Source of the DNA: a virus
Lineage: Duplodnaviria; Caudoviricetes
Length of the DNA: 61,156 nt
IMG/VR virus record: IMGVR_UViG_3300045125_000015
Location: 1-61,156 of that record
Reading direction: 5' to 3' (one strand)
This document shows positions 3,482 to 51,843 of this stretch, one piece after another; the first letter of the stretch is position 1, and every line of letters begins with the position of its first letter. Both the position numbers and the translations under genes were made by a program. Under the pieces are notes generated by a model, which made no database searches, was not told the DNA's origin, and saw only the letters and a program-made list of their open reading frames with translations.

Positions 3482-4147
3482 ATGGCTTATCCTACTGTAT
3501 CGAAGCCTTACGGGCTTCAGCCGATCAATCTGATCGGCGGTCAGGTGTACGCCGGTTCGACTCGTCTGTTCCGTATCGCTAGCTAGCTACGGCACCAGCA
3601 TCTTCTACGGCGATGTGGTCAAGATCAACTCTGATGGCACTATCGTCAAAGATACTGGTACGACGACCGCGACCCCGGTTGGCATCTTCATGGGTTGCAC
3701 CTACACGAACCCGTCCACTCAGCCAAAAGCTGAACTACCAGTACGTACACTGGCAAGCACCAACTGCCCAAGACATCCAGGCGTACGTGGTTGACGATCC
3801 CGATGTTCTGTTCAAGGTTGCAGCAGTTTCGTCCGGCACTACTGTGGCTTTCTACAGCTCGCAGCAGATCGGCCTGAACGCAGCTCTGGTGCAGAACAAC
3901 GGTAACGAGCACCACTGGTGATTCGCAAGTTGCAATCGATGGCACTTCGTTTGCCACCACTGCATCTCTGCCTATCCGCGTTGTTGACATTGTTCCTGAT
4001 ACTTCAAATAGCGCTAACGGCTATTGCGAGTTCATTTGCAAATTCAACGCACCCTACATGGTTTCCACGCTTCACTAGCCCAGCGCAACACCGTGGCGAC
4101 TCGTGGTGACTGGCGGCCATGCGTATCTGAACCCGACTGGTGTTTAA
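3482..4147 (+). CDS. Putative capsid decoration/minor head protein (frameshifted)
   Basis: MAYPTVSKPYGLQPINLIGGQVYAGSTR...AYVVDDPDVLFKV; immediately upstream of the major capsid gene. Confidence 0.55.
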
Positions 4148-4157
4148 GGAGTAAGAC

Positions 4158-5068
4158 ATGGCTATTTCACGCGCACAACTACTGAAAGAGCTGCTGCCTG
4201 GCCTGAACGCACTGTTCGGCATGGAGTACGCTCGCTACGGCGAAGAGCACAAGGAGATCTACGAAACCGAGACCTCCGAGCGTTCGTTCGAAGAAGAGAC
4301 CAAGCTGTCTGGCTTCTAGCGCAGCGCCGGTCAAGAACGAAGGTTCGGCAATTCGCTACGACAACGGCCAAGAAGCTTGGACCGCTCGCTACAACCACGA
4401 AACCATTGCTCTGGGTTTCTCGCTGACCGAAGAGGCCATCGAGGACAACCTGTATGACAGCCTGTCTGGCCGTTATACCAAGGCTCTGGCTCGTGCCATG
4501 GCGTACACCAAGCAAGTCAAGGCTGCTGCTGTTCTGAACAACGGCTTCTCGTCCAGCTACCCCGGTGGCGACGGCGTGGCTCTGTTCAGCACTGCGCACC
4601 CGCTGGTGTCTGGTGGCACCAACAGCAACACCCCGACGACCCAGGTTGACCTGTCTGAAACCGCGTTGGAAAACGCAGTCATTCAGATCGCAGGTTGGAC
4701 TGACGAACGTGGTCTGCTGATCGCCGCTAAGCCCCGCAAGCTGATCGTCCCGCCGGCACTGCAATTCGTTGCAACCCGCCTGCTGGAAACTCAGCTCCGT
4801 CCAGGCACCAATGACAACGACGTCAACGCCATCGTCAACAACGGTTCGATTCCGGAAGGCTATACGATCAACCACTTCCTGACCGACAACGAACGGCTGG
4901 TATCTCACCACCGATGTACCGAACGGCATGAAGCACTTTGTTCGTATCCCGCTCCAGAATTCAATGGACGGGGATTTCGACACAGGGAATGTGCGTTACA
5001 AAGCACGTGAGCGTTACAGCTTTGGCTGGTCGGATCCGCTCGGCATGTTTGCATGTCAAGGCGCATGA
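4158..5068 (+). CDS. Major capsid protein, Mu gpT-like (frameshifted)
   Basis: MAISRAQLLKELLPGLNALFGMEY...ARYNHETIALGFSLTEEAIEDNLY...DGVALFSTAHPL...KPRKLIVPPAL...RYKARERYSFGWSDP. AAGGAG RBS. Followed by a terminator. Confidence 0.88.
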
Positions 5069-48494: not shown

Positions 48495-48822
48495 CCGGCT
48501 AGTGACCGTACCTTCCGCGATGAGCAGAGAGCCTGCATGGGCTGCCGAAGAGAGAACACCGGCTACCGAGCACCCCGGCAACGCCGCGCAGCCTGTTAGT
48601 GAGGGACTGCACAAGATTACGGAGCCAGTGGTGAGACAAATCCGTGGTCGAAGCAATCGCTACCTTCTGGGAGCCAGAGCAAGTAACGGGATACGAAAGT
48701 ACCCAGCACAAGCGACCGGCAGCCAGGATCAGCAGGAATCATTGCTGGTCTGGGCAGGTGTGATACTCCAGTCGTGACCTGCGGTAGGGGAAACGGCACG
48801 GCTTATCACCCTTGGAGGACCT

Positions 48823-49356
48823 ATGGGAGAAATGATGGGAGCGTCAAAAATTGGTATGGCCATGCTTTCCAGGTACATCAAGCACCGGCTTGGCTGCGGA
48901 GCAAAGAATGGAGTCAGCCCGTACGACTTGGCCTGCAAGGTCTTGGAGATGGATGGGAAACGTAAGCCTTTTGGCTTGAAGTCGAAAGCATGGGTGGAGC
49001 GCAACCTTGAGCACATATCTGCAATCTCGCGGCAGTACGTCAGCACAAAGCCATACCAACCACCGCCAAAACCAAAGAAGAAAGCGCCAGCAATTAGTCC
49101 CAACGTTATCTCAAATGATTTATTTTTAAAAACATATGAGTGGCGTCGTCTTCGCATGGAAGCGTTGAAAAAGTATGGGCCGAAGTGTATGTGCTGCGGC
49201 GCTACGCCTGCGACTGGTGCGGTCATGAACGTGGATCACATCAAGCCACGCAAGTTATTCCCAGAGCTGGCGTTGGAGATATCCAACCTTCAGATCCTCT
49301 GCCATGAGTGCAACCACGGCAAAGGCAACTGGGATCAGTCGGACTGGCGGTCGTGA
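48823..49356 (+). CDS. HNH endonuclease
   Basis: WRRLRMEALKKYGPKCMCCG...VDHIKP...NLQILCHECNHGK. Confidence 0.88.
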   Translation: MGEMMGASKIGMAMLSRYIKHRLGCGAKNGVSPYDLACKVLEMDGKRKPFGLKSKAWVERNLEHISAISRQYVSTKPYQPPPKPKKKAPAISPNVISNDLFLKTYEWRRLRMEALKKYGPKCMCCGATPATGAVMNVDHIKPRKLFPELALEISNLQILCHECNHGKGNWDQSDWRS

Positions 49357-49387
49357 TTCTTTTTACTATTGAAGCAATACATGAGTG

Positions 49388-49433
49388 TTGACAGGAACAA
49401 TGTGTTGACGGATACTAGATGTAGAGGTACAGT
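49388..49433 (+). promoter_or_regulatory. Tandem sigma70-like promoters upstream of the repeat locus
   Basis: TTGACA-17-GATACT (49388-49416) and TTGACG-17-TACAGT (49405-49433). Confidence 0.6.
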
Positions 49434-49456
49434 GATTCCTAGATATAGGAGTGGAT

Positions 49457-49618
49457 ATGAAAGAGGGGGAGTGGCTGCGGGAGTATGTGCAGGAATTTGC
49501 GGACAAGCTGGAGCAGTCTGTGGTGGAGCGGGAGCGCGAGCGTGCGGCCATGATCTGTCATGCCTGTCGTGACCTGCCGCCGGAGGTCATCGCGGAAAGG
49601 ATTTTGGATCGTAAGTAA
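49457..49618 (+). CDS. 53 aa hypothetical protein
   Basis: AGGAG RBS; MKEGEWLREYVQEFADKLEQSVVERERERAAMICHACRDLPPEVIAERILDRK. Confidence 0.55.
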   Translation: MKEGEWLREYVQEFADKLEQSVVERERERAAMICHACRDLPPEVIAERILDRK

Positions 49619-49623
49619 TACCT

Positions 49624-50000
49624 GGCGAGGCACGGCTTGGCTCGCCAAGGCGAGGTCGGGAAAGGTGGGGGCTGGCAACAGCGGATAGGGGATTCTCAAG
49701 AGTCCTCCTTCCCCTGGCAAGCTAGTGCTGGGCACGGCAGTGTCCGGCAAGGTTCGGTCAGGTGCGGTATGGGCTGGAAACAGCGTACAGAATCTTCTAC
49801 GAGGGTCTCTGTGCGATGTGAAGAAATCAAACACTGCGAGGCGAGGCTAGGCTGGGTAGAGCTTGGTCCGGCTAGGCAAGGTATGGGCTGCTGTGCAGCG
49901 TATAGCAGGTTCTCTGAGCCTGTTATGCGATGCGTAAGCATCAAGGGTTCGGCGCGGTCTGGAATGCAATGGCGGTGCAGGGACTGGTATGGCAAGGTTC
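49624..50000 (+). repeat. Array of four (GGY-NN)n pentamer tracts separated by hairpin cassettes; candidate guide-RNA array
   Basis: Unbroken 5-nt register in tracts 49624-49668, 49716-49770, 49835-49884 and 49946-50000. Tracts 1-3 end in GGGCTG-loop-CAGC plus a long hairpin. Confidence 0.85.
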
Positions 50001-50021
50001 TTTTAACTTAGGAGAGTGATC

Positions 50022-50636
50022 ATGGCAAAAGCCAAACAAGTAGCAGAAGTTTCCAACGGCGGCGCAGAGTCAATCGAGTACGGCATCCCGTACACCGCGC
50101 ATGTCACCATCGAAGGCAGCGCAGACTTCCTGTTCCATCGCTGGAACTGCGAGGCCGTAGAAGCAAAATCCAAAGCGGCAAAGAATTCCGCAGCCAAGAA
50201 AACAGACGACATCGAGTCCTACGTCTGGCGCAACGACGACGGCGAACTGTGCTGCCCCGGCGAGTACCTGCGGCAGTCCATCATCATGGCCGCCAAGTTC
50301 AAGCAAGACCCACGTTCACCACGCAAGTCAGCGATGGATCTGACCAAGGCGGGCGTAGTCAGCCTGACCAACTTGGCCAGCTTCGGCAAGACAGAGTGGG
50401 ACTACGAAGACAAGCGCCGCGTTGTCATCCAACGTGCAGGCGTGAACCGTGTGCGTCCGGCGATGAAGGCGGGCTATCGGCTCGACTTTGACCTGATGGT
50501 TCTGACACCGGAATACATCGATCAGTTCTGGCTGCAAGACACGTTATCTATGGCCGGCAGACTGGTCGGTATCGGTGACTTCCGTCCGACGTTTGGCCGG
50601 TTCAACGTAGTGAAGTTTGATATCTCTCAAGGGTGA
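50022..50636 (+). CDS. Stand-alone RAMP/Cas7-like protein associated with the GGY-NN tracts
   Basis: Intact 204 aa ORF. N-terminal strand YTAHVTIEGSADFLFH; GELCCPGEYLRQSI (cf. Cas7/Csm3 P.IPGSSLKG); C-terminal Gly-rich loop AGRLVGIGDFRPTFGRF. Fold inferred from motifs only. Confidence 0.65.
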   Translation: MAKAKQVAEVSNGGAESIEYGIPYTAHVTIEGSADFLFHRWNCEAVEAKSKAAKNSAAKKTDDIESYVWRNDDGELCCPGEYLRQSIIMAAKFKQDPRSPRKSAMDLTKAGVVSLTNLASFGKTEWDYEDKRRVVIQRAGVNRVRPAMKAGYRLDFDLMVLTPEYIDQFWLQDTLSMAGRLVGIGDFRPTFGRFNVVKFDISQG

Positions 50637-50706
50637 GGTGCGGCGATGATCAGGCAGCAGTGGACGGGCAATGCAGGGATTAGGTTCAGGTCAGGCACGG
50701 TATGGG
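50632..50706 (+). repeat. Fifth GGY-NN tract, downstream of the RAMP-like gene
   Basis: GGTga GGTgc GGCga ... GGAcg GGCaa TGCag GGA.. GGT.. GGTca GGCac GGTat GGG, with a few 1-nt register slips. Confidence 0.7.
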
Positions 50707-50723
50707 TTTTATAGGAGAGTTTC

Positions 50724-51843
50724 ATGCTTCAATTTAATAGGTACATTTTGCGCGGCGAAACTGATGACTTCCACATCCGGTTCATCGCGCTGGTCAACTC
50801 CATCATCCACGAGCTGCCGGGTGACATGAAGGGCAGCATGGACAAGCTGCGTGAACTAGCACACAGGTATCCGCTGAACGACCGCCTGCCAGCAGTAGCG
50901 GCCAGGTTGTTCTTCTGGGGCAAGGTTGCATGGGATGACATCAAAGACATCCTGCCGGCAGAACTTCCATCGGCCTTCTTCTACAAGCAGGAGATCGTCG
51001 GCTGTCTAGGATACGAGCGGGCATGGCGCAGGTACGGCATCAACGAGGATCAGTGGATGCTGTATCAAGGCATGGATACCTACACCCCGCACAGTTCTCA
51101 GCCCGGCGGCTTCATCTGCTACCAGCCGCGCAGCAGCGGGTTCTTCTCCGTGATCGAGAACATCATCGCCGCTGACATTGCCGCCAGCATCGAGGGATAC
51201 GCAAATGGTTCTTCGATATGTCCGGCAACTGGTGGGCGTACGATGAGCCGTTCGAGGATATTTTCGGCGACATTTTCCAGTACCCAAAGAACGGCATGTT
51301 GCCCAAGATGAACTTCGATGCCATGCGCAAGATCTGGATGACGCCGACAGACACCACGGCATCCTTGCTGTCCACCATGAAGGCAACCTGGTACGCCCAT
51401 ATCTATCAAGCTATCGGCGCGTACGCTCCGGAGGTCAAGGGCATGGATAACTGCGGCGTAATCTTCGTGCGCGGCGGTGACAAGCTACATGACCGAGACT
51501 ATTCCATCGCCCACGCAGCCTGATCAGGCGTGACCTGAAGACGATGGAACGCTTGTGCCAGACGCGGTACGTCCTGTCTGATGACAAGGAAGCAGGCGCG
51601 AGGGTAGCGGGTCTGGATGGGTATGTCATTGACCGCAGCCATCAGGTAGAGGGCGGCTATCATCATCGCCCCGGCCAGAAGACCAGCTGCATGAACATCC
51701 TCGGCAACTATCTGGCTATGGTGGAAGCCAAGATGAACATGTCCTGCCCGTCAGCCAACCTTGTCAACGCAGCGCAGTGGACGCGGAACGATGACGAGAA
51801 CTGGAGCCAGGCCAACCCTGTTTACCGATACCTTTTGATTTAG
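50724..51843 (+). CDS. GT23/NodZ-like fucosyltransferase-type protein (frameshifted)
   Basis: SSGFFSVIEN; GVIFVRGGDKL (cf. HVRRTDK); YVLSDD; NILGNYLAMVEA...SANL. Confidence 0.55.

Follow-up and report, generated by a model that had tools for sequence, protein, structure and literature searches.

What are the short, abutting hairpins that interrupt an array of five-base repeats in the phage record IMGVR_UViG_3300045125_000015, and what might they do for the RNAs that would carry them? The window analysed here is the whole of that record, 61,156 bases that make up a complete or nearly complete genome (97% complete by the record's own estimate). The array lies on the + strand in a non-coding gap of ∼400 nucleotides (nt) between open reading frames (ORFs) 49457-49618 and 50022-50636, and consists of four tracts of pentamers, three of which end in a 'cassette' composed of a short hairpin (P1) and a hairpin of 13 base pairs (bp; P2), with a third hairpin (P3) in one instance. 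We conclude that these cassettes are very probably constant structured modules by which successive guide RNAs are separated in a VIPR (Viral Interference Programmable Repeat) array carried by the phage. An initial annotation, made without database searches, had recognized the cassettes, which are real, but left them unconnected to the neighbouring Cas7-like gene that explains them.

VIPR is a CRISPR-like DNA-silencing system described in three preprints from 2026 (10.64898/2026.04.26.720920; 10.64898/2026.04.26.720927; 10.64898/2026.10.15.759431), and constitutes a newly reported way of reading DNA, by means of a discontinuous RNA guide. The Vipr protein is presented as an ancestral RAMP, and its guide RNAs (vrRNAs) as 9-16 YNNGG repeats followed by a structured 3' tail, which takes the form of a pseudoknot in the SUSP1 clade (10.64898/2026.04.26.720920). 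The same preprint reports that the NN pairs read double-stranded DNA with one base skipped, that the targets are competing phages and satellites, and that hammerhead ribozymes are interspersed between the vrRNAs of VIPR types I and V, two of the seven types that have been published. The SUSP1 system, designated type II, yields transcripts of ∼100 nt by small-RNA sequencing, the mature RNA comprising 60 nt of repeats and a tail of ∼40 nt that is called invariable (10.64898/2026.04.26.720920). Cryo-electron microscopy places one protomer on each repeat, with the pseudoknot capping the 3' end and DNA engagement starting near it (10.64898/2026.04.26.720927); residues H17, R138, D177, W178 and R179 recognize the GGY (section 5 of the same preprint). 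The shared tail has further been described as making the vrRNA competent for Vipr complex formation (10.64898/2026.10.15.759431). Most of the published detail concerns two systems that are closely related, those of SUSP1 and P. fulva.

The pentamer phasing of the gap is pronounced: GG-to-GG spacings of 5, 10 and 15 bases occur 29, 26 and 24 times, respectively, and spacings of 2-4 bases only 3-5 times each. A scan of the whole 61-kb genome finds such GG-phased tracts solely at 49619-49951, and on the + strand only. Guide 1 (49624-49668) comprises nine GGY-NN pentamers, guide 2 (49716-49770) eleven, of which three at the 5' end are degenerate, guide 3 (49835-49884) ten, and guide 4 (49946-49990) nine. 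The cassettes occupy 49671-49712, 49773-49814 and 49887-49942, so that N guides are accompanied by N-1 cassettes, every one of them between guides, and the next guide begins 3-20 nt past each cassette. The annotated claim that each tract ends in a cassette thus holds for three of the four tracts and fails for the fourth, which has no cassette downstream and is followed instead by two further GG pentamers, a stretch rich in U and the ribosome-binding site of the downstream gene (50009-50016), together filling 49991-50021. A tail-less last guide that runs into this ribosome-binding site is found in all eight of the close relatives displayed. A Vipr filament formed on guide 4 could occlude the site, and may in this way give rise to autoregulation.

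All hairpin elements quoted in the initial annotation for tracts 1-3 lie where it had placed them. P1, of the form GCUG-loop-CAGC, starts within the last GG pentamer of the guide, and P2 abuts it directly. In unit 1, a 4-bp P1 (GCUG-GCAA-CAGC, 49671-49682) precedes a P2 that we term class A (49683-49712), made of 3 bp, a 2x2 internal loop, 8 bp and a UCAA loop. Unit 2 has the same P1 stem closed by a different loop (GCUG-GAAA-CAGC, 49773-49784), a class B P2 of 13 bp with one bulged base and a UAC loop (49785-49814), and a linker that starts with GAUG and forms no stable P3 (49815-49834). The longest cassette, that of unit 3, combines GCUGC-UGU-GCAGC (49887-49899) with a class B P2 of 13 contiguous pairs, three of them G-U, and a UCU loop (49900-49928), followed by the optional third hairpin, GAUGC-GUAA-GCAUC (49929-49942). 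No unpaired bases intervene between the three helices, which lie side by side as hairpins in the minimum-energy folds.

Folding energies single out the + strand. Compared with 200 shuffles each, the cassettes of units 2 and 3 reach -20.6 kcal/mol (z -3.57; 1 of 200 shuffles folds as well) and -32.5 kcal/mol (z -5.15; 0 of 200). Unit 1, at -21.2 kcal/mol (z -1.69), is matched by 11 of 200 shuffles; energy alone does not make it significant, and it draws its support from covariation, described below. The reverse strands of units 1, 2 and 3 give z values of -0.37, -0.55 and -1.95, and for the gap as a whole (49600-50030) z is -5.14 on the + strand, where none of 100 shuffles does as well, but +0.47 on the - strand.

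Comparison with related loci confirms that the stems differ in sequence while keeping their pairing, as had been noted within the array. The twelve closest relatives (L001-L012), in which the downstream protein is 86-92% identical, carry the same cassettes in the same two classes. An alignment of 16 distinct class B tails from the window and these loci (A2, which includes window units 2 and 3) pairs in 93.8% of its cells, compared with 84.3% after shuffling (none of 500 shuffles reaches the observed value) and with 28-51% when partners are slid by 1-3 columns. Within P2 of this class, 97.1% of cells pair and 8 of the 13 pairs change on both sides; P3 is paired in 82.5% of cells, the hairpin being present in 12 of the 16 distinct tails and absent from four. 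Class A, aligned from window unit 1 and four relatives (A3, five sequences), pairs in 89.4% of cells as against 79.8% when shuffled (0 of 500), with two-sided changes at 6 of 13 P2 pairs; since the tail sequences are related, the shuffle counts for both classes are not to be read as probabilities. Two positions are U.G in all 16 class B tails, and in both classes the apex of P2 is formed by three fixed pairs (S-S, U-A, U.G). A covarying cassette of two classes served by one protein narrows what Vipr, or a processing enzyme, could recognize to helix geometry and this three-pair apex.

A covariance model of the class B cassette (R1) gives 28 matches of 53-82 bits on the + strand, all of them in the window and L001-L012, many being its seeds or their duplicates; the unit 2 cassette scores 55.7 bits and that of unit 3 81.9 bits. 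At the same places the - strand scores 13-28 bits, and the best match outside the clade reaches 21.7 bits. Together with the folding energies, this asymmetry bears out the annotated proposal that the cassettes function as + strand RNA.

The gene that follows the array (50022-50636, + strand) encodes a Cas7-like RAMP of 204 amino acids (aa), which belongs to PHROG 4652, a family of unknown function, and has no Pfam family. Its relatives were found on 80 viral contigs, and in 72 of these 80 loci GG-phased tracts adjoin the gene on its own strand (on the other strand in one of the 80). A profile built on 35 relatives (A1) matches one solved structure, PDB 36pp chain D, 'SUSP1 Vipr protein', with E 9.7e-10 over the C-terminal 74 residues; the single-sequence match to SUSP1 Vipr has E 9e-5. 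The AlphaFold model (AF2) of the protein has a mean predicted local distance difference test score (pLDDT) of 86.5, and in structure it comes closest to type VII Cas7 and to Csm3 (Foldseek E 4e-7, template-modelling score about 0.5; Z 11.2, root-mean-square deviation 3.2 over 134-148 residues), which agrees with the small single-RRM RAMP, bearing a G-loop and a thumb, that characterizes VIPR systems. The five GGY-contact residues of SUSP1 align with H39, R145, D186, F187 and R188, which are invariant or nearly so among the 35 relatives, the H17/H39 correspondence falling in a weak part of the alignment. This similarity, weak but specific, points to the product as Vipr, the protein partner of the guide RNAs, and we refer to the gene as vipr.

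If the tracts are guides, their NN pairs should be found in other genomes with one free base between them. We scanned IMG/VR viral contigs for exact matches to eight consecutive units (16 fixed bases) and scored the remaining units of each guide on the stretches found. Guide 2 yielded 45 stretches, 18 of which match at all 22 NN positions of its 11 pentamers, the degenerate ones included. IACE[F/L]GLVHLF is encoded at this site, which belongs to a conserved ORF of ∼144 aa without a known family, on the opposite strand. Among the positions that the search did not force, six of six within the guide match, as does one of two in the next pentamer (GGGCU, the start of P1), and the chance of at least seven of eight is ∼4e-4 per stretch; the sequence evidence for this predicted target is strong. 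Of the 21 stretches found for guide 1, 14 match at all 18 NN positions. The site lies at the 5' end of a portal gene (PHROG 9232; codons PFRSLDNVS), and the two pentamers that follow, which form P1, do not match the target. For guide 4, 91 stretches were found; of the 80 listed, 63 match at all 18 positions, the site being the start-codon region of a Sak4-like AAA_24 ATPase gene, with MSLPIISAD encoded in 58 of these and ISLPIIRAD in 5. In all three targets the skipped base falls on the codon wobble position.

For guides 1 and 4, the many matching stretches are in each case copies of a single gene family and therefore count as one event, and about 20 chance stretches per scan are to be expected, judging from guide 3. 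Best matches of the four guides within their own genome (15-16 of 22-24 positions) are no better than those of guides with shuffled unit order (16-19), giving no sign of self-targets, and within the fetched stretches no convergence of several guides on one target element was found. Judged by these matches, the tracts behave as VIPR guides. The guide ends immediately before GGGCUG, and the matches stop just before P1, which marks the cassette as the constant part of the unit. The predicted targets, namely a portal gene start, the start codon of a Sak4-like ATPase and a conserved small ORF, lend support to the idea put forward in the preprints that phages use VIPR in conflict with one another.

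The SUSP1 system offers the closest described parallel. Both systems have a small RAMP in which the G-loop motif and the residues contacting GGY are shared, vipr-strand guides made up of 9-12 GGY-NN pentamers, and a structured element that opens with a 4-bp stem right after the last GG, P1 occupying the position of pseudoknot stem 1. Guides of both systems find their matches in other phages' genes, the single skipped base being the wobble one, and self-targets are absent from both. They differ in that the proteins share similarity of only ∼25-41 bits, over the C-terminal third; in that the SUSP1 tail is an H-type pseudoknot in which the stem 1 loop is complementary to downstream sequence; in that this tail is called invariable, whereas here a single array contains tails of two classes with differing sequences; and in that the array studied here lies wholly upstream of vipr, its last guide running into the ribosome-binding site, in a phage of a freshwater bacterial host and seemingly without a conserved vap gene. 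An H-type pseudoknot of ∼40 nt is absent from this array, where the P1 loops of 3-5 nt have no downstream partner and the folds consist of side-by-side hairpins.

A second likeness to SUSP1 concerns P2. Each SUSP1 junction carries, separately from the pseudoknot tail, a long hairpin with a P2-like apex (pyrimidine-U-U on the 5' side, A-G-purine on the 3' side; YUU/AGR), followed by AUG and the next guide. These hairpins lie at 1040-1075, 1176-1201, 2309-2333, 2457-2481 and 2600-2624 of the SUSP1 locus (L261), at the passages from leader to guide 1, from tail 1 to vipr, from vap to guide 2 and from tail to next guide. When R1 was run unfiltered over the 46 kb of SUSP1, the five junction hairpins ranked 1, 3, 5, 6 and 9 among 33 matches, with 17, 12, 10.1, 10.1 and 7.5 bits (best E 0.004, by a rough calibration); the model matches these hairpins and not the SUSP1 pseudoknots. 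By sequence, the two systems look collinear: last GG, short stem, a second pseudoknot stem (in SUSP1 only), junction hairpin, (G)AUG and next guide. The published mature size of 60 + ∼40 nt leaves the SUSP1 junction hairpin outside the mature RNA. The main-text passages of the VIPR papers that we searched make no mention of this hairpin.

These comparisons suggest how the array may work. Structure, covariation, strand specificity, linkage to vipr and the boundary between guide and tail are shown by the sequences themselves; transcription, processing, binding by Vipr and silencing would follow by extension from SUSP1. A single + strand transcript, probably begun at promoter-like sites in 49388-49433, would carry guides 1-4 followed by the vipr mRNA. 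As in SUSP1, each pentamer would be bound by a single protomer of Vipr, which would hide the GGY and present the NN pair, and the resulting filament would read the double-stranded DNA of competing phages, every third base being skipped, and silence transcription. P1 most likely stops the Vipr filament and sets its register, while P2, with its 13 bp and fixed apex and often followed by GAUG, most likely marks a cut that frees one 3' end and the next 5' end, in the manner of a CRISPR repeat. P2 may accordingly be a processing signal and not a lasting cap. If it lies outside the mature RNA, as the SUSP1 junction hairpin does, the RNAs would be ∼60-70 nt long; we regard retention of P2 on the mature RNA and its removal as about equally probable. 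The initial annotation had taken the cassettes for handles that define separate RNAs, and this stands insofar as they are constant structured modules closing variable guides, in a system for which discrete guide RNAs of ∼100 nt and a 3'-capping tail are known from SUSP1; cleavage and capping at the present cassettes are putative.

The alternative that survives best concerns what becomes of P2. The whole cassette (P1 and P2, with P3 where present) might be kept as a stable 3' handle, the equivalent of the pseudoknot tail, for Vipr loading and protection against exonucleases, with RNAs of 92-119 nt; the 90-120 nt proposed in the initial annotation presupposes such retention. The 3'-capping role of published tails, and the description of the shared tail as what makes a vrRNA competent for complex formation, both fit such a handle; the abutting helices would give a compact, exonuclease-resistant end, and the units, which measure 92, 119 and 111 nt, agree with the published ∼100 nt. 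SUSP1, however, has its P2-like hairpin in addition to the pseudoknot and, by the published sizes, outside the mature RNA, and guide 4 looks functional with no cassette at all. We consider retention of the entire cassette a real possibility, though one that falls somewhat short of an even chance.

More tentatively, the likeness between P2 and the SUSP1 hairpins may reflect one conserved element. P2 would then be a VIPR junction hairpin common to SUSP1 and the freshwater clade (S-S/U-A/U.G apex, ∼13-15 bp, then (G)AUG and a guide) and would act as an undescribed maturation signal of ribozyme-less arrays, recognized by a host RNase or else by Vipr itself, acting like a Cas6. The minimal P1 would be the true 3' cap, and the tail-less last guide, fused to the 5' untranslated region of vipr, would couple guide production to feedback on vipr translation. 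This combined proposal is possible and, taken as a whole, rather doubtful; the likeness itself provides a testable candidate for how ribozyme-less arrays are cut.

A further alternative treats the cassettes purely as processing signals, for a host RNase or for Vipr, that are removed in full, leaving mature guides tail-less throughout the clade. The N-1 arrangement would agree with this, as would the absence of a cassette on one side of guide 4 and, likewise, of the first guide, and in the main texts of 10.64898/2026.04.26.720920 and 10.64898/2026.10.15.759431, as far as these were searched, nothing was found on the maturation of arrays without ribozymes. An invariant P1 that starts inside the last GG pentamer nevertheless fits a bound end-piece better than a discarded spacer, and the helices, at 13 bp or at 17-18 bp if stacked, are too short for a classical RNase III site. 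Complete removal therefore appears unlikely.

The remaining alternatives fare much worse. A role of the inverted repeats as DNA, in which they would serve to bind protein or to shuffle guides by recombination, would suit the different combinations of guides and cassettes seen in relatives; conserved G-U pairs, including the two positions that are U.G in every class B tail, together with the restriction of both excess folding and high R1 scores to the + strand, make this very improbable. A function in transcription termination or attenuation, by which guides and vipr mRNA would be kept in a given ratio, is just as hard to sustain: the hairpins are stable, contain GC pairs and lie upstream of a gene, but no U-run follows any cassette, a scan of 49200-51500 finds no terminator-like site, and the next guide begins so soon after each cassette. 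Self-cleaving ribozymes, which the hammerhead-interspersed arrays of types I and V bring to mind, can be dismissed almost entirely, since no Rfam family reaches its gathering score anywhere in the window, a search of 49300-50100 relaxed to E 10 brings up nothing that resembles a ribozyme, and the abutting helices have no conserved unpaired core. The only Rfam match at that relaxed threshold in 49300-50100 was a structureless long non-coding RNA model (E 0.46), which we take to be compositional. No tRNA or tmRNA was found, and a blastn comparison of the region with 50,697 phage records returned no match. Binding sites for a TRAP-like ring protein, arrays of two-tetrad G-quadruplexes and a cos/terminase site by the HNH gene were also considered, and were dropped once the link to Vipr appeared.

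Several observations weigh against our interpretation of the cassettes and of the array. With regard to structure, RNAalifold offers a competing fold in which P2 is extended by pairing of the 3' half of P1 with GAUG, undoing P1 and P3, and the same extended P2 occurs in the minimum-energy fold of full-length unit 2. One varying pair of the extended helix (GC in 12 tails, AU in 2, GU in 2) tracks the absence of P3 and does not settle the choice of fold; because the columns concerned are invariant, the alignments cannot decide between the two. For the same reason P1, invariant in sequence among the relatives, yields no covariation evidence, and the case for its putative pairing is energetic. The resemblance of P2 to the SUSP1 hairpins involves five paralogues, which amount to one or two independent matches, and unrelated SUSP1 hairpins take R1 ranks 2, 4, 7 and 8.

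Other such points concern the guides and their surroundings. No target was found for guide 3: none of its 21 stretches matches fully, the best being 19 of 20 positions in two unrelated stretches. Taken by themselves, the matches of guides 1 and 4 are weak evidence, because in each only one unforced pentamer (two positions) matches, at a chance of 1 in 16. Guide 4 has plausible natural targets but lacks a cassette. Two relatives, moreover, hold nearly the same guide (L002:2920-2985 and L003:2698-2760; NN pairs equal in 9 of 10 units, compared by eye), which is tail-less and last in L002 and internal, with a class B cassette, in L003. A cassette is therefore not needed to define a guide, and guides and cassettes recombine independently. 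Most published VIPR types have an accessory (vap) gene beside vipr; no conserved one lies there across the 80 loci compared, so that the clade seems to have no fixed vap gene; the array and vipr together suggest a mobile two-part cassette that is found in varied neighbourhoods. Parts of the array and of vipr (48800-51400 compared) are present in assembled contigs from RNA libraries X1, X12 and X20 (three libraries, two studies) and from DNA run X2, but the RNA-library contigs give neither RNA ends nor strand, DNA carry-over is possible, and their ends fall in repeated cassette sequence. These contigs have no cover over the HNH gene, which is uninformative.

VIPR systems as a kind are already known from the 2026 preprints, and this locus is a further example with a tail shape of its own. 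What is particular to it is a distant freshwater Vipr clade, environmentally widespread (80 viral contigs), together with a pseudoknot-less tail of two classes, an array upstream of vipr with a tail-less last guide, the seeming lack of a conserved accessory gene, and the likeness of P2 to the junction hairpins. Parallels with CRISPR are evident in the alternation of constant hairpin modules with variable guides in one precursor, as in CRISPR repeats processed by Cas6-type enzymes, and in the Cas7/Csm3-like fold of the protein partner, as in the Cas7 backbone filaments of class 1 systems. In contrast to CRISPR, the VIPR guide is itself a 5-nt repeat that is read discontinuously, with no 6-nt periodicity; the present locus has no Cas6, Cas5, Cas1 or Cas2 gene, and its modules differ in sequence within one array. 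Cleavage at the hairpins is only putative here.

Two overlapping sigma-70-like matches make up the promoter-like region (49388-49433, + strand): TTGACA-17-GATACT (10 of 12 positions) and TTGACG-17-TACAGT (9 of 12), both being matches to the consensus only. Between this region and the array lies a small ORF of 53 aa (49457-49618, + strand) that has no Pfam or PHROG family, is present in 2 of the 80 related loci, and probably lies outside the VIPR system. An ORF of 124 aa that overlaps the array (49637-50011) was rejected as coding: it has no family, and the 5-nt period is incompatible with coding, which makes it an artefact of the pentamer repeat. Directly upstream of the promoter-like region lies an HNH endonuclease gene (48823-49356), which is shared with L001 only (77% identity). 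After vipr comes an ORF of 195 aa (50724-51311), again with no Pfam or PHROG family and found downstream of vipr in 2 of the 80 loci.

The only named phage with a close Vipr relative is DSL-LC04 (OR003939.1), from lake water, whose Vipr is 70% identical over 99% of its length. Like the present phage, it has a genome of ∼61 kb and a GGY-NN array directly upstream of vipr. It differs in that its guides are bracketed by long-range inverted repeats, the last one ending in a hairpin and a U-run, and in that R1 finds no cassette (best score 2.6 bits). Its Vipr homologue (L260 1501-2118; OR003939.1 22429-23046) is annotated as a 'helix-turn-helix transcriptional regulator', which is probably a mis-annotation. 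Both in DSL-LC04 (L260 1290-1400) and in L016 (2650-3000), where Vipr is ∼70% identical, a guide is bracketed by two complementary segments of ∼15 nt; judging from the sequence, guides of this subclade would sit in the loop of a long-range stem.

More distant relatives show other solutions. In L054, ∼680 nt of uninterrupted GGY-NN pentamers lie downstream of vipr (3583-4263) without recognizable tails, and may represent the 'staggered/overlapping' array type of the discovery paper. Among 20 related loci, Rfam identifies a hammerhead ribozyme in only one (L042:555-621; type II, 51.9 bits), far from the array, 2.4 kb upstream of vipr and outside the guides; the window contains none between its guides. 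Conserved inter-guide elements of ∼110 nt, with no Rfam match, recur in L041 (2915-3020 and 3305-3395), and elements of ∼55 nt with apparent pseudoknot potential in L073 (3160-3215 and repeats). Such different inter-guide elements in other clades of the same protein family indicate that the tail evolves fast relative to the protein.

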